From: Candidatus Micrarchaeota archaeon
GTDB lineage: Archaea; B1Sed10-29; WALL01; WAMD01
Assembly: GCA_964652335.1 (NCBI GenBank)
Contig: CAZZDL010000013.1
Location: 3,865-22,149 of the forward strand
Direction of reading: 5' to 3'
Length of the DNA: 18,285 bases
In this document: positions 3,741-13,922 of the stretch, one piece after another
Layout of the letters: each line of letters starts with the position of its first letter
Numbering within the stretch: position 1 is the first letter of the stretch
Program-made: the position numbers and the translations under genes
The notes under the pieces: generated by a model
The model's input: only the letters and a program-made list of their open reading frames with translations
Told to the model about the DNA's origin: nothing
Databases searched by the model: none

Positions 3741-4196
3741 TCACTCCTTATCAATCATTATCACAACATCCGCAGTATTCTTCAATGCAGATGAAAACCC
3801 TGGTTCGACGCCAATTACTATTGTTTCCTTTCCTCTTGCCTTTGCCTTTAATATCACTGGTTGGTAATCTGCATCTCTTGTCATCAATGCTATTATATCT
3901 ATGGCCGGATTGTATATCTGCTCCATAGCATCAACTGCCATCCATACGTCCACGTCAGTGGATGTTATCACAGGTTCAAACCCCTGGTTTGATACTGCTT
4001 CTATTAACTTGTCAGATGCATATTGATCAAGGAACACCTTAGCTATTTTTACGTTACCGTGCTTATTTAGCTTTTTCTTTACCTTGTCCAAGTCTATCTT
4101 GAATTCTTTCCTTAATATGTTTGGCCCGTCAACTAGTAATGCTATATTCTTTTTCTTTTTCACTAATCCAAGTTTGTATTTGAATTCCTCAAACAT
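3741..4196 (-). CDS. NYN domain protein (LabA/DUF88, TIGR00288-like PIN-fold nuclease)
   Basis: LLVDGPN, TDVDV.MAVDAM, TRDADY.P, GKETIVIG and S.ALKNTAD motifs. Confidence 0.9.
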   Translation of the reverse strand: MFEEFKYKLGLVKKKKNIALLVDGPNILRKEFKIDLDKVKKKLNKHGNVKIAKVFLDQYASDKLIEAVSNQGFEPVITSTDVDVWMAVDAMEQIYNPAIDIIALMTRDADYQPVILKAKARGKETIVIGVEPGFSSALKNTADVVIMIDKE

Positions 4197-7227: not shown

Positions 7228-9260
7228 TGTATCTTTGCTCCTGGAGCTATTGGCTTTTCTGGAACCAGTAGGACTACATCGTCTCCTTGTTCTGCTGCTA
7301 GTAACATTCCTTGTGATTCTAGACCCATCATCTTTTTTGGTTGCAGGTTGGCTAGTATTATTATTAGCTTCCCTTCTAAATCTTTGGGCTTATACCATTT
7401 CTTTAGCCCGGCTACTATTTGTCTTTTACCTAGTTCTCCCACATCCAGCTCTAGCCTTATCAGCTTTTTTGATCCTTCCACGTCTTCGGCCTTTACTACC
7501 TTTGCTACTCTGATATCTAGCTTTGCAAATTCATCATATGGTATTTCGTTTACCATCTTTATTCCCTCCAGCTCTTTCCCTCTTTTTCCTCCGAATTTTT
7601 CTTTCCATTTTTCTATCTCTTCTTCTGTTATCTTCTTAACAAGTATCTTTGGATTGCCTAGCTTTGTCCCAGGTTTAAGGTTCAGTTCCCCAGCTGTGTT
7701 CCAGTCTGCGGCTTCTACACCTAGTAGCTTTAATGCTTCTCCAGCTATGTCTGGGATGAAAGGCATTAGTAGTATGGATGATGTCTTTACTGCATTTAGG
7801 GCCAGGTACAGAACAGTATTTCTCCTGTCTGCGTTTTCCTTTTTCCATGGTTCCTCTGCATTGAGATAAGCGTTCGCTTCCCTAGCTATGTCCAACGCTT
7901 TTTTCAATGCTTCTCTGAACTTTGGAATTTCAAGTTCTTTTCCAACTTCATTTGGAGCTTTCTCTAAAATGTTAATTAGCCTTTTGTCTGACTCATTGAA
8001 TTCTCCAGGTTCTGGTACAACAGAGTCAGAGAATTTCTTTGACAGAACCAGGACCCTGTTTACTAGGTTACCGTAGGCGTCTGCCAGTTCATTTACAGCT
8101 TTGGCAAACTCTTCCCATGTGAAATCTGTATCTCCTGTTTCTGGCATGACCATGGTTAGGGCCATCCTCCAATAGTCTGGAGGATAGGGCAGCTCTCTTA
8201 CGTCTTTGAGGAACACTCCAATTCCTTTGCTTTTTGAGAACTTCATTCCTTCGTAATTTAGGAATTCCATTGCAGGGACATTGTATGGCAGAATGAATCC
8301 CTCATTTGTTCCCATTAGTGTAGCTGGAAATATTATTGTATGGAATGGGATGTTATCCTTTCCTATGAAGTGTATTAGCCTAGTCTCTTTGTCCTTCCAC
8401 CATTCTTCCCAGTTTTCCCCAGCTTGGTCTGCCCAGTTCTTTGTTATGCTGATGTAGCCGATAGGCGCGTCAAACCATACGTAAAAGACCTTGTCCTCAT
8501 AGCCTTTTAGAGGTACGGGTACTCCCCACTTTAAATCTCGCGTGATTGGCCTAGGTTTTAGTTCGGGTATTAGTGACAATGCCCAGTTCCTGACATTTGG
8601 TTTCCAGTGTTTGTTGCCTTCCAGCCATTTTTTCAGAGGTTCTTTGAACTTTGGAAGGTCCAAATACAAATGCTTTGTTTTCTTGATTGTTGGCCTATTT
8701 CCACAGACTGCGCACTTGGGCTCTAGTAGCTCCTTAGGCTCCAGCAGCCTTCCACAACCTTCGCATTGGCCGGAATGCGTTTCCGTCCCGCAGTATGGAC
8801 ATTTTCCGATTATGTATCTGTCAGGAAGAAACATTTTACAATGCTCACAGTACAGTTGCTCTGTTTCCTTTTCTAGTATGTATCCGTTTTCCCATAGTTT
8901 GAGGAATATGTGTTGGGTCGTCTCATGGTTTGTCTTTGAGCTGGTCCTTCCAAATCTAGTGAATGCAATATTGAACCATTCGTAATCCTTCTTATGTTCC
9001 TCATGCATTTTTTCTACCCATTCTTCTACTGACACTCCTGCTTCCCTAGCAGCCATTTCACTGGCTGTCCCGTGTTCGTCTGTTCCACATATGTATATCG
9101 CGTTTTCTCCCCTTAGCTTTAGGAACCTAGTGTATATGTCACCAGGCAGGATGCAGCCTACCAAGTGCCCTAGGTGAGGTCTGTTATTTACATAGGGCAA
9201 CGCGGATGTAATTAGCCAGCGCTTTGGCTTTCGGCTTTCGGCTGCGTCCTTGTCGGTCAT
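7224..9260 (-). CDS. metG: Methionyl-tRNA synthetase with C-terminal tRNA-binding OB domain
   Basis: TSALPYVN..PHLGH, GTDEHG, four CxxC knuckles, YVWFDA, GKDNIPFH and KFSKS. C-terminal domain with SQGMLLAA. Confidence 0.98.
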   Translation of the reverse strand: MTDKDAAESRKPKRWLITSALPYVNNRPHLGHLVGCILPGDIYTRFLKLRGENAIYICGTDEHGTASEMAAREAGVSVEEWVEKMHEEHKKDYEWFNIAFTRFGRTSSKTNHETTQHIFLKLWENGYILEKETEQLYCEHCKMFLPDRYIIGKCPYCGTETHSGQCEGCGRLLEPKELLEPKCAVCGNRPTIKKTKHLYLDLPKFKEPLKKWLEGNKHWKPNVRNWALSLIPELKPRPITRDLKWGVPVPLKGYEDKVFYVWFDAPIGYISITKNWADQAGENWEEWWKDKETRLIHFIGKDNIPFHTIIFPATLMGTNEGFILPYNVPAMEFLNYEGMKFSKSKGIGVFLKDVRELPYPPDYWRMALTMVMPETGDTDFTWEEFAKAVNELADAYGNLVNRVLVLSKKFSDSVVPEPGEFNESDKRLINILEKAPNEVGKELEIPKFREALKKALDIAREANAYLNAEEPWKKENADRRNTVLYLALNAVKTSSILLMPFIPDIAGEALKLLGVEAADWNTAGELNLKPGTKLGNPKILVKKITEEEIEKWKEKFGGKRGKELEGIKMVNEIPYDEFAKLDIRVAKVVKAEDVEGSKKLIRLELDVGELGKRQIVAGLKKWYKPKDLEGKLIIILANLQPKKMMGLESQGMLLAAEQGDDVVLLVPEKPIAPGAKIH

Positions 9261-9282
9261 GGGTTTATTTTAGATATATGAA

Positions 9283-9290
9283 ATTTAAAA
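9283..9290 (-). promoter_or_regulatory. TATA-like box of metG
   Basis: Minus-strand TTTTAAAT 23-30 nt upstream of the ATG, consistent with a leaderless transcript. Confidence 0.55.
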
Positions 9291-9355
9291 AGAGTTTGTA
9301 TCCGTTGCAATCGTTAGTGTTTTTGCTGATCTTTTAGTCGTTTTCGTTTAATGGC

Positions 9356-9955
9356 CTACTCAAACAAGTTTACCGAGTCTTCTGTGAATTCAGATAAAAG
9401 CCTGTCTAGAGCTTTTTCTATGTTCCTTTCTTTTTCCAAGTATTCCTTAAGCTTTTCTACATTCTTTACCACGAATATCCTCTTTTCCAGTGGCAGTTTT
9501 GTTTTGTAGAGGTGTCCATACAGATATCTTACAGCAGATTTTGTGTCATCACTGTTCAGCTTTTCCTCTGCTGTTTTAAGAAGGCCATTGTTCTGTATAA
9601 AAAATTTGAAGTTCTTGTCATAGGCTGTGTCAAAGTCTTCACCACTCATAGCTTCATTTAGAGTATGGATCGCTACTATTTCTCCTAGAACACGCTTTCC
9701 TGCCTCGCTTATGTCCTCTTCAATTTCTTGTATCGCGTGTTGGGTTAGCTCCTCTTTTGCTAGATTTATGGCTTGAATGCTTGACTTGAGTGCATCATTT
9801 ACAAGTCTTCTGTACCAGTTTTTTTCTTTAGGGTCTGTCTCTGCTTTATGCTTTTCATATAACCTGTCTGCATCTTCCCTAGCTGTTAGGTAATCCTTCA
9901 GATAACTCTTTGCTAATTTGTAATGTTTTGTTTCTTTCTTTGGATATCTTGGCAT
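9356..9955 (-). CDS. Hypothetical charged alpha-helical protein
   Basis: 199-codon ORF with a TATA-like ATTTAAAT at 9977-9984. No recognisable motifs. Confidence 0.75.
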   Translation of the reverse strand: MPRYPKKETKHYKLAKSYLKDYLTAREDADRLYEKHKAETDPKEKNWYRRLVNDALKSSIQAINLAKEELTQHAIQEIEEDISEAGKRVLGEIVAIHTLNEAMSGEDFDTAYDKNFKFFIQNNGLLKTAEEKLNSDDTKSAVRYLYGHLYKTKLPLEKRIFVVKNVEKLKEYLEKERNIEKALDRLLSEFTEDSVNLFE

Positions 9956-10122
9956 GTTTAGATTTAGGTGTTGCCAATTTAAATGTATTTTTTGTTTGCT
10001 TATTAGTCTGACACGATATGGCGGACCAACTAATGATAGTGAAAAACCCTAAACAGCTAGACGTAAAAACCCTCTAGACAAGGCAAGGAAGAAATGGGAG
10101 AACTAGCCTCTTAAAAAATCTC

Positions 10123-10163
10123 CCTTTAGGGGGAAATATTTTTAAATTATTTCCCCCTAAAGG
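10123..10163. repeat. Palindromic site copy 1: 16-bp perfect inverted arms around a 9-bp spacer (33-bp core at 10127-10159)
   Basis: CCTTTAGGGGGAAATA-TTTTTAAAT-TATTTCCCCCTAAAGG. The spacer lies 22-30 nt upstream of the ATG at 10169. Confidence 0.97.
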
Positions 10164-10168
10164 AAACT

Positions 10169-11398
10169 ATGAAACTAGAGCAATACTTGCTGGATAAAAA
10201 AGAAGAGATATCTGAAGCCGAGGTCATACCTAGGGACTACAAAGTGCGCCTAAGTAAAGAATATGTAAACGTTCTAGTTGGACCTAGAAGGGCTGGAAAA
10301 AGCTTTCTCTTATTTGACATAATAAAAAACAAGATGAAGATACCTGAGGAAGATTACGTTTACTTGAACTTTGAGGATCCAGAAATTAGTGTTGAGAGAA
10401 GCATCCTAAAAGAGTGCATAAATGCCCACATATCAATATACGGAAAGAAACCAAGTTATATCTTTTTGGACGAGATACAGTTTCTTTCGAACTGGGAGAG
10501 GCAACTTTCATCATTGCACCTAGGAAAAAGATACAAGATTGTAGTTACTGGGTCAAACTCCAGAGTAACCAGCAAGGAGATTGCAACATCAATGCGGGGG
10601 AGAAGTCTATCGCATTTGATCCTTCCTCTTTCATTTCCAGAATTTCTGAGATTTAGGTATAGGGAGAAGTTAGATGAGTTCATGTCTTCTTATACCGAGG
10701 CGAAGATGAAGAGGAGGGTAAAGGAGTTTATGGAAATAGGTGGCTTTCCTCAGGTGGTTCTGGATCCCAAGTCCAAATCGCAGTTTTATAGAGACTACAG
10801 AAATGTTGTAGTATATAGAGATATTGTGGAAAGATACAACATAAGGGACTTGAAGCTCTTGATGTATCTTATGAGTACAATTGAATCTAGTGTTGGAAGG
10901 CCATTCTCAGTTCATAAAGTATTCAATGAAATCAAGTCAATGGGTATTAAAGTCAGCAAAAAGACTGTCTACAACTACTATGCATACATAATGAACTCTA
11001 TGTTTTTCTTTGAGCTGAAAAAATACTATCCCTCTATGAGGGAGAGAGAAAAAGCTCTTCCAAAGGTATATTTGTGTGATCATGGTTTCTTGGAAGATGA
11101 TGGAAAAAGGTTTGAAAACATGGTCTTCTTGGAGTTAGCTAGGCAGTTGAATATGGAGGATATGTTCTACCTTTCTAGCCCGGCGTCCGAGTTGGATGTG
11201 TATATCCCTAAGGGGATGATCGGGATTCAGATAACCCTAAATCCAAAGAGCGCTGTTGATAGGGAACTAAAGGGATTTTCCATAAAAAAGCTGAGGAGAA
11301 AATACATCATCTCTCTTGAGAAATTCGAGTCCATGGACAGTTCGATACGCTCTCTTAGTTTTTTAGATTTGGTTTCCCATAGGGGGAAATATTTTTAA
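10169..11398 (+). CDS. AAA+ ATPase, COG1373 type (AAA_14 + DUF4143)
   Basis: Walker A GPRRAGKS, Walker B IFLDEIQ, VTGSN, GGFP, DIVERY, KVYLCDHG, FENMV, and C-terminal ELD...IQI motif. Confidence 0.92.
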   Translation: MKLEQYLLDKKEEISEAEVIPRDYKVRLSKEYVNVLVGPRRAGKSFLLFDIIKNKMKIPEEDYVYLNFEDPEISVERSILKECINAHISIYGKKPSYIFLDEIQFLSNWERQLSSLHLGKRYKIVVTGSNSRVTSKEIATSMRGRSLSHLILPLSFPEFLRFRYREKLDEFMSSYTEAKMKRRVKEFMEIGGFPQVVLDPKSKSQFYRDYRNVVVYRDIVERYNIRDLKLLMYLMSTIESSVGRPFSVHKVFNEIKSMGIKVSKKTVYNYYAYIMNSMFFFELKKYYPSMREREKALPKVYLCDHGFLEDDGKRFENMVFLELARQLNMEDMFYLSSPASELDVYIPKGMIGIQITLNPKSAVDRELKGFSIKKLRRKYIISLEKFESMDSSIRSLSFLDLVSHRGKYF

Positions 11399-11412
11399 AT
11401 TATTTCCCCCTA
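11380..11412. repeat. Palindromic site copy 2 (12-9-12), identical direct repeat of 10127-10159
   Basis: TAGGGGGAAATA-TTTTTAAAT-TATTTCCCCCTA. Contains the ATPase stop codon TAA (11396-11398). Confidence 0.97.
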
Positions 11413-11526
11413 GAGATAGCCAAGAAAAACAAGATTTAGCTAGCTCACACTAGATTTTTAATATCTTCTGTTTTAATTGAATAGTCATTGAAAAGGAGAT
11501 TAGCGTCTAGTGGCAAAGGTGAGTCT

Positions 11527-11925
11527 ATGTTGGAAGTAGTTCCGATGAAATTGGAGCATCTAGAAGAGATAAAAAAATTATTTGCCAGCGAGGGATGGCA
11601 TCCCGAGGAGCTGCATTCCGGAAATACTATTGTTCTAGTAAATGAGCATGGCAAAGTGTTTGGAGGCATCCACTTTGAGGTTTTGCCGAATGGTATGGGG
11701 GAAATAAAATTCATCAAGGTTTCTGAACGCGGAGAAAGACATGGAGATAAGCTAGTGCAAGAGGCTTTGAAGGAATTATTCAAGCATGTAAATATGGTTG
11801 TTGCCACACCAAAAGGGCTAAGCCCAAGGATAAAGCGATTTTTTGAAAGGAATGGCTTCAGGGAGGCTCTAGGTGGAAAAATGGCAATAAAAAAAGGTGA
11901 GTGGAGGGCAAGGAGGAGGGCCTAG
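11527..11925 (+). CDS. GNAT-family N-acetyltransferase
   Basis: EIKFIKVSERGERHGDKLV (degenerate acetyl-CoA motif A) and FFERNGF. GGTGA RBS at 11518-11522 supports the ATG at 11527 over the TTG at 11488. Confidence 0.75.
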   Translation: MLEVVPMKLEHLEEIKKLFASEGWHPEELHSGNTIVLVNEHGKVFGGIHFEVLPNGMGEIKFIKVSERGERHGDKLVQEALKELFKHVNMVVATPKGLSPRIKRFFERNGFREALGGKMAIKKGEWRARRRA

Positions 11926-11949
11926 TCTGAACCCAATCCCAATTATCCT

Positions 11950-13245
11950 CTATCCTTTGGATGGATCAACCATCTTGCCCATGAATAATATTAGGCCTGT
12001 CCTGTTGTCCTTTATCAAGAATATAAATGGATGATCTGCCTTGAATATGTGAGTAGGCCTTACGGCTGTGATCATACCAATCGCTGTTGCGGCTGCGGCT
12101 TCTGTCCCCTCTTCGTTCACGTCAACGTATGCCTTGTGTAATACAAAGCTTATGAAAACCCTTTTTGGTGTCATCCCACTGAAATTTGCAAAAGGAGTAA
12201 ATGCCTTTTTCATCCCCATATCCTGGAGAGAATCGGAAAGTGAGTAACTGGTTTCTAGCTTGAACTTTGGCAAGTATATCCCGTCTAAATGCGTTTTTAT
12301 CATTTGAGATTCCCATGACTTAAGCTTTTCATAGCTCAGCTCCCCCTCAATATCATCTATGGTATAATTGTATACCTTTCTCTCTCCGGTCATGTGGTCT
12401 ATCATTTCTCCTTGTTTTGGCAGTATGATTATCATTGATAGATTCCCTTTGTATGGAAGCTCTAATATCTCAGCCTTTCCAGTATCCGCATAATTGAACC
12501 TTGCCTTGTCTGGCTTCATATGCATCATTTTCACAGTGACCGGCCCTTCTGGCGTTTTGAACTCCATATCTCTTGTTTCAGCTTTATCAAACTGCCATAC
12601 CCATGTCCCTTTGAAGTATATGGCATTGGTTATTATGAGCACAGTGTCAGGAGTTATTGCGGACGCAGGGAGAAGATCCTTTATTTTTCCGTTTGTCTGT
12701 TCCTCTATGAAACTGTTTATAGTTTCTCTTGATTTTTCTGGTTCGTTATTGAAGTCAAGGTTTGCAGCCTTCCCTCCATAATAGCTTTCAACCCTTTCTA
12801 CGTATTCCTTCATCAATGGGAAATCTTTTTGGACCCATAATGCGTTCCCTGTTCTGAGGGTGTACTTGTCTGATTTTTCATTTATCTTGTTGTAGATCCA
12901 AGCAAAGTTTGGAGCTAGTTCTTCCCTGTCTGGGAAGTGGAACACAGATGCGATCTCGTTGGCTGTATCTCCTCTGGCTCCTTCATATACTAGGCCAAAT
13001 GCGGAGGATATGCTGTAAGGTGAGAAGAAAACATTCTTGTTTTTATTTGTCTTCTCAAGCTCTAGAAACATGTTAATTGCAAACTGGTTATTCGCATGAA
13101 CTACTCTTTCAACTCCTTCTTGTGTGTAGCCTGTAGCATTTGCAACAGGTGGATTGGTGGGAGCGTATGGATAAAGGAAGAGTGCAGCTGTGATTATTAC
13201 TATTGCCAGCCCAGCAATTATCAGGGAAACATTTCCGGATTTCAT
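11950..13245 (-). CDS. Serpin (serine protease inhibitor) with N-terminal signal/membrane anchor
   Basis: NVFFSPYSI, NAIYFKGTW, LPKFK, hinge EEGTEAAAAT and FKADHPFIFLI signature. Confidence 0.97.
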   Translation of the reverse strand: MKSGNVSLIIAGLAIVIITAALFLYPYAPTNPPVANATGYTQEGVERVVHANNQFAINMFLELEKTNKNKNVFFSPYSISSAFGLVYEGARGDTANEIASVFHFPDREELAPNFAWIYNKINEKSDKYTLRTGNALWVQKDFPLMKEYVERVESYYGGKAANLDFNNEPEKSRETINSFIEEQTNGKIKDLLPASAITPDTVLIITNAIYFKGTWVWQFDKAETRDMEFKTPEGPVTVKMMHMKPDKARFNYADTGKAEILELPYKGNLSMIIILPKQGEMIDHMTGERKVYNYTIDDIEGELSYEKLKSWESQMIKTHLDGIYLPKFKLETSYSLSDSLQDMGMKKAFTPFANFSGMTPKRVFISFVLHKAYVDVNEEGTEAAAATAIGMITAVRPTHIFKADHPFIFLIKDNRTGLILFMGKMVDPSKG

Positions 13246-13355
13246 GGTTGTATATTGGTTTGCTTGTTTTTATCTATTTCCTTTTTCTTAGTGATTTACC
13301 TTAATTCTTGAGAAGCCTTTTAAACTAGTCACTCATTGAATTCTTAGGTGAACGC

Positions 13356-13832
13356 ATGGGCAGAGAAAAAACAGCAAAGCAATGGCCACTAGTTCTAGGC
13401 CTAGTGATCCTAGGGCTAGCTATCGGGGCTTTTTACCTTGCGCTTGGACATCAATCAGAGCCTCCTAGCGTGCTTGGCTTTGTCTATTCTGTATCTGGAT
13501 GCGCGAATAGCTCTGGACAGACGAAGTCTCTAGGACCTGGGGAAGAGGTAAAACCAGAGATCATAGTAAAGGGCAACAATATTATCTACCATAGAGCTAT
13601 AAATCATCTCTGCTGCAGAAAGGTGAATATCAGCTATGATATAAATGGAAATGAGGTCCGCATATACGAGGAATGGTACGGAGAGCCTTGTAAATGCATT
13701 TGCTTTTCAGAGCTGAAAGCCAACCTCACTCTTTCTCCAGGAAGCTACAGAGTGTACGTATACGCCAGGAACTTCAATCCAGGGGAGAACAAGGATGAGC
13801 TGGTTGTGTCCAAGGAGGTAGTAGCGAGGTAA
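13356..13832 (+). CDS. Membrane-anchored/exported Cys-rich beta-rich protein
   Basis: N-terminal TM helix with SGC, HLCC and CKCIC motifs and PGSYRVYV. GGTGA RBS, and TTTTAAA about 35 nt upstream. Confidence 0.8.
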   Translation: MGREKTAKQWPLVLGLVILGLAIGAFYLALGHQSEPPSVLGFVYSVSGCANSSGQTKSLGPGEEVKPEIIVKGNNIIYHRAINHLCCRKVNISYDINGNEVRIYEEWYGEPCKCICFSELKANLTLSPGSYRVYVYARNFNPGENKDELVVSKEVVAR

Positions 13833-13922
13833 CCTTAGCTTTTTAGCAAGGCAGTATCTGTCTTTTTACTACAAAACCAAAAACTAATTAAAAGTCATTA
13901 CCTATAACAATATCCGATTCTC

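Follow-up and report, generated by a model that had tools for sequence, protein, structure and literature searches.

A single gene of the COG1373/PDC-S01 family, lying between two identical copies of what appears to be its own promoter-operator, is the subject of this work. It is found in an 18,285-nt stretch (the window; positions 3,865 to 22,149 of contig CAZZDL010000013.1) from a Candidatus Micrarchaeota archaeon. Comparison across the family shows the repeat, on sequence grounds, to be a conserved palindromic promoter-operator element of this COG1373 subfamily with a TATA-like spacer, and an allele that lacks the gene supports the view that the gene is an excisable single-gene unit of 1,253 bp. 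The model we favour, and consider rather probable, is that of a cassette bounded by its own operator, in which homology-driven excision would leave a solo operator, and re-entry, or expansion and contraction, would homogenise the pair.

Archaeal marker genes in the window identify the host as a small-genome archaeon. Its genome (G000) amounts to 821 kb in a 51-contig assembly with N gaps and is 96.8% complete. The locus was compared with 31 genomes of the host phylum, labelled G000, G001, G002 and so on, and with the contigs and depth of five sequencing runs (X1 to X5); this used contigs only, mapped at 80% likeness. The runs that contain the full locus are two hydrothermal vent metagenomes, and no RNA run containing it was found. 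Homologous loci drawn from relatives, metagenomes and viral contigs gave 125 family genes and 217 control open reading frames (ORFs) after filtering, which removed duplicates, open-ended ORFs, ORFs flanked by less than 150 bp, family ORFs shorter than 330 or longer than 520 aa, and 19 loci from an exact two-arm scan of genome contigs. That scan had returned 19 scattered single sites, mostly in unrelated bacteria, and these are excluded from all counts.

An earlier reading made from the letters of the window (the sequence-only reading) had described two identical, directly oriented 33-bp palindromes with an asymmetric 9-bp spacer. We confirmed this: the copies at 10127-10159 and 11380-11412 lie 1,253 bp apart, and each consists of perfect 12-bp inverted arms around the spacer (12-9-12), with a 13-7-13 reading possible if one mismatch is allowed. 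When the genome was searched for the 33-mer and its degenerate variants, as that reading had proposed, the pair was unique, with no third copy in the 821 kb at up to nine mismatches and no further copy of the arms alone at up to six. The upstream copy widens to 16-bp perfect arms (10123-10163), and the full element spans about 50 bp once outer half-sites are counted. Perfect hairpins with arms of at least 11 bp number 17 in the genome, and this pair makes up two of them. A flanking direct repeat scoring at least 18 surrounds 5 of 569 genome ORFs; that both DUF4143 genes are among these five is far beyond chance. The palindromes had also been said to enclose one gene and almost nothing else. 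A single ORF is indeed enclosed, but the downstream copy overlaps its 3' end, supplying the third base of a His codon, the residues RGKYF and the stop codon at 11396-11398. Subtracting the gene from the unit leaves 23 bp, both in G000 and in the relative G005, and a circle, if closed, would have 23 bp from stop to start. The parts of the cassette, in window coordinates, are as follows.

10118-10126, plus strand: left outer half-site of the upstream copy, host side; differs from the downstream copy and from the G005 and solo versions.
10127-10159, plus strand: upstream repeat copy, the predicted promoter-operator core, with a purine-rich BRE-like left arm, a TATA-like spacer and an inverted right arm.
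10139-10147, plus strand: 9-bp spacer, read as a TATA box; it begins 30 bp 5' of the ATG.
10160-10168, plus strand: right outer half-site, from the core to the start codon, cassette side.
10169-11398, plus strand: COG1373/PDC-S01 gene, 409 aa, with AAA_14 and DUF4143 domains.
11371-11379, plus strand: left outer half-site of the downstream copy, within the coding sequence.
11380-11412, plus strand: downstream repeat copy, which gives the last codons and the stop codon, the stop lying within the TATA-like spacer.
11413-11421, plus strand: right outer half-site, degenerate, host side; like the G005 and G018 versions, with homology read from the alignment.
10127-11379, plus strand: the 1,253-bp unit absent from the empty allele, in which contig 20 of run X4 joins 10126 to 11380.

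The left outer half-site at 10118-10126 appears to be worn. Host-side outer half-sites are degenerate and cassette-side ones are nearer to the consensus. Entry into an aged scar would give this pattern, and so would a weaker constraint acting on the outer flanks.

An empty allele with a single site, which the sequence-only reading had suggested looking for, was found as one X4 contig carrying a single copy. This contig of 300 bases (contig 20) runs along 10005-10126 and resumes at 11380, so that 1,253 bp are skipped; the 33 letters fit either side of the joint, and the shorter side measures 122. Its left 121 bases show seven differences and one gap, and its right 179 show two differences, a divergence like that of other X4 pieces, which derive from a strain about 3-8% diverged. 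X4 depth within the gene is zero in four of six bins, 0.72 in one and 15.1 in another, and all bins over 9105-10190 and 11458-12362 are covered. The contigs of X1, which may be the source sample, cover both junctions and break exactly where the 31-mer graph branches at the 33-bp repeat. Since X1, in which the gene is present, yields contigs that break there, a contig that passes through without a break in X4 implies that X4 lacked the cassette junctions. In X5, one contig extends from the left flank through the upstream copy as far as 10166; the partial cover of the locus in X3 and X5 proves nothing. Depth in X1 is 29.6 over the cassette, 30.1 over the left flank and 23.3 over the right flank. 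Together with the repeats found around other family members, described below, the X4 allele supports the proposal of an excisable 1,253-bp unit.

The 33-bp repeat is not an assembly artefact, an outcome that the sequence-only reading had named as fatal to its proposal. The assembly is fragmented and gapped, and short-word graphs branch at a repeat of this length, but X1 shows each of the two junctions at even depth, X5 shows the left one again, and G005 has the homologous layout with substitutions of its own. We give an artefact practically no credence.

The motif formed by the purine-rich arm, AT-rich spacer and inverted arm stands upstream of 40/125 family genes and 2/217 controls, mostly starting 38-41 bp 5' of the start codon. 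It follows the protein subfamily, occurring with 39 of 78 high-scoring members and 1 of 47 lower-scoring ones, and it is present at the 3' end in only two of the 125 family genes, namely the G000 cassette gene and its G005 counterpart. Strong upstream palindromes of any sequence (score 10) accompany 48 family genes and 7 controls. Across the host genome, TATA-like words peak at -31 to -27, with 105 matches over these five positions and mostly 1-9 per position elsewhere; the cassette spacer, which starts at -30, falls within the peak. We take the spacer to be a TATA box and the purine-rich arm to be a BRE. The sequence-only reading had allowed that the palindrome might be an ordinary operator in front of many unrelated genes; the operator part of this suggestion is borne out, but the operator is that of its own gene family.

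A search of the 31 genomes for this operator subtype gave six matches, two each in G000 and G005 and one each in G018 and G002; the reversed control pattern gave none. In G000 and G005 the two operators form a pair around the gene, and in G018 and G002 a single operator stands without a family gene in its vicinity. Convergent genes border the G018 site. That of G002 lies in the gap 5' of a RIO kinase gene, and the same RIO position in G003 and in G000 has no site. Neither the 16 kb surrounding the G018 site nor the 9.8-kb contig that carries the G002 site yielded a family gene or remnant, and a subfamily alignment search gave no match in G002 (89% complete) and only distant members in G018 (91% complete). 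These solo sites, which belong to genomes of other genera and families, are 83-89% identical over 45-58 bp, and they are best read as scars because the motif is the family's own. The G018 site ends at the same base as the G005 repeat, which stops exactly one base 5' of the ATG. The core had no exact match in viral contigs, and plasmids gave no match.

The G005 protein, the closest homologue, is 59% identical to that of G000, with fourfold-degenerate sites agreeing at 13/43 (saturated), and the junction between gene end and operator is the same in both. The two G005 copies are identical over 48 bp and carry two substitutions relative to G000 that are common to both copies. Both substitutions break the palindrome, and each changes an amino acid in the 3' copy. 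Since selection for binding would not put identical mismatches into both copies, this indicates that sequence is exchanged between them or that they go through a stage with one copy only; the two operators thus evolve in concert. Immediate neighbours differ at all four sites, and the G005 cassette is on a different contig from its metG and MCM genes, which in the window bracket the region of the cassette. Movement between loci is likely but not proven. Searches with the neighbouring GNAT and serpin genes gave no syntenic empty locus in the relatives. A metagenome scan with an alignment of four sequences returned 599 pattern matches and no relative, so that a close cassette beyond G005 was not readable in context; two further homologues, P0003 and P0004, are protein sequences without DNA context.

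In the cassette protein, AAA_14 and DUF4143 both score above the curated Pfam cut-off within one ORF of about 400 aa, and the best PADLOC match is the PDC-S01 model PDLC04787 (E 6e-82, residues 18-402). By domain content and by this match the gene is a member of COG1373/PDC-S01. A STAND-like ATPase part (Walker A at 38-45, Walker B to 102) is followed at about 228-302 by a helical and winged-helix region, comprising a helix-turn-helix and a wing (structure model pLDDT 93). The C-terminal domain is DUF4143, of PD-(D/E)XK type. Here the cassette lineage departs from its family, having lost the usual C-terminal motif in exchange for an operator-derived tail; most members of the wider clade end in the usual motif. 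In a PD-(D/E)XK motif, catalytic acidic residues and a lysine are expected. Among 98 aligned homologues, E316 and D343 are invariant and Q354 is kept in 88, and these three, with R365 and E366, agree with the family consensus. Residue 356 is T, so the canonical catalytic lysine is lacking, and T or C occupies this position in 84/98. Fold searches with residues of about 13-309 recovered SSO1545 (2fna; Z 15.7, rmsd 4.5, 267 aligned) and PAB2304 (2qen; Z 15.1, rmsd 4.7, 267 aligned), with DNA-bound Orc1/Cdc6 as the top Foldseek row; identity in these matches is 12-18%, the C-terminal domain is barely covered, and the likeness to all three is one of fold only, a common fold showing no function. 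From the structure model, the winged helix may bind the inverted half-sites of the palindrome. The cellular role of the gene is probably defence, a predicted role that has candidate status for the whole family.

PDC-S01 is described as an ATPase joined to a PD-(D/E)XK domain; it ranks fourth in frequency among defence systems and is patchily spread, with many transfers across domains, and most such candidates await validation (PMC12988326). DUF4143 is listed as a PD-(D/E)XK domain of unknown function (PMC3424549), and COG1373 is among the genes co-shared between genera (PMC10782964). The main text of the PDC preprint (bioRxiv 10.1101/2024.01.29.577857) makes no mention of S01, and the part of PMC12988326 available mentions no promoter palindrome, flanking repeats, excision or solo sites.

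The cassette is not alone in having flanking repeats. Repeats scoring at least 20 surround 24/125 family genes and 4/217 controls (Fisher p 3e-8, a value that is overstated since kin are not independent), and in two other archaeal groups they surround 8/56 family genes and 0/72 controls. Repeats at the self-operator position were found for 11 of 42 genes in the host class (phylum). Nine of these are clear by eye, with repeat lengths of 25-58 bp, and two G009 cases look like target duplications; an extra, diverged case in G017 falls below the score but has a recognisable, non-identical operator at the 3' end. Elsewhere such repeats accompany 1/69 metagenome, 0/8 viral and 0/6 other archaeal genes, and 0/56 in the two other archaeal groups. 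The self-operator layout occurs in three separate clades, each with an unrelated operator (FastTree tree, midpoint-rooted, no support test); besides that of the cassette, the other two take in the C8 gene of G000 and genes from G003, G004, G005, G013 and G018. These comparisons suggest that target-type duplication is a family-wide habit and that operator duplication is concentrated in this phylum.

The sequence-only reading had asked whether other COG1373 paralogues carry palindrome pairs of their own, and one does so in the same genome. On contig C8 (9463-10803; L002), a second COG1373 gene, of 396 aa, lies between identical 58-bp repeats in a unit of 1,283 bp, placed between a valyl-tRNA-synthetase-like gene and glucose-6-phosphate isomerase. 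Its repeat is an unrelated four-half-site palindrome with a TATA-like box at the end. The C8 operator matched in 1 of the 31 genomes, G000 itself, with no solo sites of its type. A solo site of the second operator type is present in G005; matches to that type in G000 C29 (weak) and G003 C34 fall within coding sequence and were dismissed as chance.

Several further arrangements were seen in relatives. Contig C18 of G005 (L052, 3748-7762) has three COG1373 genes in a row, two with their own operator pairs, and a third-type solo operator directly after the type-1 cassette with no cognate gene adjoining. Contig C27 of G013 (L034, 218-1519) has an operator-bounded gene whose unit is exactly as long as the called ORF (1,272 bp); its start codon may have been called too far upstream. 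On contig C23 of G017 (L099), two tandem 12-6-12 palindromes lie 3' of the gene, like the upstream pair though not identical to it, and this genome has a gene of PF00589, the tyrosine-recombinase family.

These data allow us to propose a mechanism. The winged helix of the protein would bind the half-sites and repress its own leaderless transcript. In an ancestor of the lineage, a second operator copy would have become fused to the gene at its truncated 3' end; the junction itself is observed, and the second copy probably arose when an insertion at a resident operator produced a long target duplication. Recombination between the copies would then remove 1,253 bp and leave one solo operator, the product seen in X4, with a circle bearing the whole gene and an intact promoter as the reciprocal product. 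Either re-entry at solo operators or a tandem array that expands and contracts would keep the copies identical within a genome as they diverge between genomes. We anticipate that the reaction is homology-driven and host-supplied, by RadA (G000 has two RadA-family genes), slippage or end-joining at the repeats, rather than being of tyrosine-recombinase type, and a break made by the cassette's own putative nuclease possibly starts it.

Two kinds of described element resemble this scheme. Long target duplication of restriction-modification (RM) genes gives direct repeats of more than 30 bp, an insert of less than 20 kb and a one-copy empty site, without a mobility gene and with repeats that often span a start or stop codon, and an insertion-amplification-release cycle has been hypothesised for them (PMC2853133; Furuta, Abe and Kobayashi 2010). 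The cassette is alike in repeat length (33 bp), insert size (1,253 bp) and one-copy empty site. It differs in that the RM repeat is host target sequence and the cassette repeat is the gene's own operator, travelling with the gene, and in being a single ORF without a methyltransferase domain or partner. The unconventional circularizable structures (UCS) and the recombinase-less H47 island excise between direct repeats, leaving one repeat and forming a circle, with re-entry at a pre-existing repeat proposed (PMC7843796, PMC5426353); UCS repeats are long, far longer than att sites, may contain genes, and flank resistance cargo in bacterial hosts (PMC7843796). The cassette shares with these the lack of a recombinase gene, the direct repeats and the single repeat after loss, but its repeat is a 33-bp predicted promoter-operator, its unit is a gene plus 23 bp, and its circle is proposed where that of UCS is known. 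By this analogy the cassette would work like UCS and the repeat-flanked restriction genes and yet belong to neither, given the length and the origin of its repeat. In the literature covered, from which most subscription journals and supplements fall outside, no description of operator-bounded COG1373 cassettes was found.

Several observations weigh against the excision and re-entry model. The empty allele is one contig at a depth of 3.4 mapped at 80% likeness, where joints may stem from other organisms or repeats, and the depth of 15.1 in one X4 bin inside the gene is unexplained. Cassette depth in X1 equals that of the left flank and so gives no hint of amplification or of plentiful free circles; no circle was observed, and X1 contigs could not reveal one, as they break at the repeat. 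Neighbourhoods also recur: in G000 and G005 alike, no more than 3.3 kb separates the serpin from the cassette, the solo site of G018 lies about 2.2 kb 5' of MCM and the G000 cassette is likewise 5' of MCM, and the same G018 site is about 4 kb from a RIO kinase gene, which adjoins the G002 site. The 59% identity of the G000 and G005 cassette proteins is close to that of metG (63%), as vertical descent gives. P0003 and P0004, at 56-58% identity, have no operator-derived tail, and 101 of the 125 family genes have no strong flanking repeat. Unrelated G000 genes also lie between repeats of 26-51 bp, which suggests a general host process. Lastly, 33 bp is short for homologous recombination.

Among the alternatives, the cassette could be an autonomous one-gene element, the sequence-only reading having named movement by the ATPase/nuclease itself as its other option. 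Here the ATPase-winged-helix-nuclease would bind the operator at both ends, synapse, cut and rejoin, and insertion would duplicate the operator because the circle is opened by staggered cuts. We consider this unlikely. It would account for three separate clades each duplicating their own unrelated operator, for the G018 solo site ending at the same base as the G005 repeat, which stops exactly one 5' of the ATG, and for the recognisable but non-identical 3' operator of G017; the match of E316, D343, Q354, R365 and E366 to the family consensus and the lack of a PF00589 match in most carriers also fit. The concentration of the layout in one host phylum (11/42) suggests instead that the host, and not the protein, is responsible, repeats differ in length (25-58 bp among the clear cases), the canonical catalytic lysine is absent (T356), and the same genome places repeats of 26-51 bp around unrelated genes. 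The bolder form of this idea, on which we look with equal doubt, is that the COG1373/PDC-S01 genes of the phylum are minimal autonomous mobile elements that bind and cut their own palindrome at both ends, form a gene-plus-23-bp circle and re-integrate with operator duplication, needing no integrase or transposase. If this is true, the operator would serve simultaneously as promoter, as repressor site and as attachment site, and a defence candidate that ranks among the commonest would be, at least in part, a selfish element. We find it improbable, too, that the pair is a one-off scar, left by a single insertion with long target duplication and then inherited vertically without re-entry, with the 3' copy kept as a second operator or terminator, occasional gene conversion, and solo sites as plain deletions. 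Target-type duplications are common around the family (8/56 and 0/72, as above) and around other acquired genes, such insertion is described for restriction-modification genes (PMC2853133), serpin, MCM and RIO as common neighbours allow one ancestral region, and neither circle nor amplification was seen. However, the palindrome-breaking substitutions in both G005 copies need exchange and not selection alone, solo sites that are still 83-89% identical indicate recent presence in several lineages, in G005 the cassette does not share a contig with metG or MCM, and neither G003 nor G000 has a site at the position occupied in G002.

The sequence-only reading had proposed a loxP- or dif-type site served by a tyrosine recombinase in trans, and this was not supported; we now regard it as very improbable. 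Sites of the loxP/FRT/dif kind have inverted arms and an asymmetric crossover spacer of 6-8 bp; the cassette spacer measures 9 bp between perfect arms and 7 bp in the 13-7-13 reading. The cassette repeats share the inverted arms, asymmetric spacer, direct orientation and single site after excision, PF00589 is found in 10 of the 31 phylum genomes, including G013 with its operator-bounded gene, and visiting viruses could supply an integrase. Against this, the spacer is TATA-positioned, the site is the family's upstream motif, the core has no exact match in viral contigs, and the two G000 cassettes have unrelated sites, so that one recombinase could not serve both. No cognate enzyme was found: PF00589 gave no match in G000 (96.8% complete), G001, G002, G003, G004, G005 or G018, where G002-G005 and G018, the carriers of pairs or solo sites, are 87-98% complete and incomplete assemblies can miss a gene; the same search gave a match in 14/14 reference genomes used as positive control. 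Resolvase and Cas1 likewise had no match in G000. An integron gene cassette differs in the same respect, PF00589 having no match in G000, and the repeat, on reading, has no canonical attC core ends. As a separate observation, PF00589 is without a match in 21 of the 31 genomes, including 9 of the 11 that are at least 90% complete; a missing tyrosine recombinase is unusual for circular chromosomes.

Under the model we favour, that of homology-driven excision and re-entry at the operator, the locus offers the PDC-S01 family a defined DNA target in the form of a palindrome to which its own winged helix is predicted to bind. It also offers a defined way for the gene to come and go, with filled, empty and solo alleles all represented. 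With this locus, what COG1373 ATPase-nucleases bind and cut, and how a single defence gene turns over in small-genome archaea where searches found no tyrosine recombinase, become testable questions. The locus has a bearing, too, on 'release and re-invade', a hypothetical stage of the cycle put forward in PMC2853133 for restriction genes flanked by repeats.

The cassette lies in a variable interval of the window.

9261-13922, no strand assigned: interval between metG and MCM, holding a 199-aa orphan ORF, the cassette, a GNAT gene, a serpin gene and a 158-aa ORF.

The metG and MCM genes are 4.6 kb apart in G000 and adjacent in G003 and G004. The 199-aa orphan (9356-9955; GC 0.377) is kept in the X4 strain and has no Pfam, PADLOC or confident atlas match, all atlas matches being sub-threshold. 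The serpin (11950-13245) is present in X1 as two alleles at about 15x and 17x, its neighbours being single at about 30x. A stand-alone Cas4-like PD-(D/E)XK nuclease lies at 210-833, in a genome without a Cas1 match. No Rfam family and no tRNA was found in the window.

Other repeats were noted in G000 and its relatives. A HicB/HicA-like pair, named by sequence reading, lies on G000 C11 (805-1353) between exact 51-bp repeats, which carry the promoter region of the downstream gene and look like a target duplication. A 323-aa repeat-like orphan on C17 (11197-12319) lies between 26-bp repeats that equal the start of the neighbouring amidohydrolase-like gene. PIN-domain genes of G005 and G003 (L076 and L101) are flanked by direct repeats of 21-37 bp, and one PIN gene is within the metG-MCM interval of G005. 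Tandem archaeal ATPase genes on G000 C39 (719-3553; 457 and 451 aa) have an identical 241-bp 3' end in both. A nested perfect hairpin cluster with a 78-bp-spaced repeat on C1 (50040-50260) could be an origin-like or regulatory element, and a GC-rich hairpin repeat family occurs near tRNA-like sequence on C1, C3, C5, C7, C9, C23, C26 and C28 of G000.

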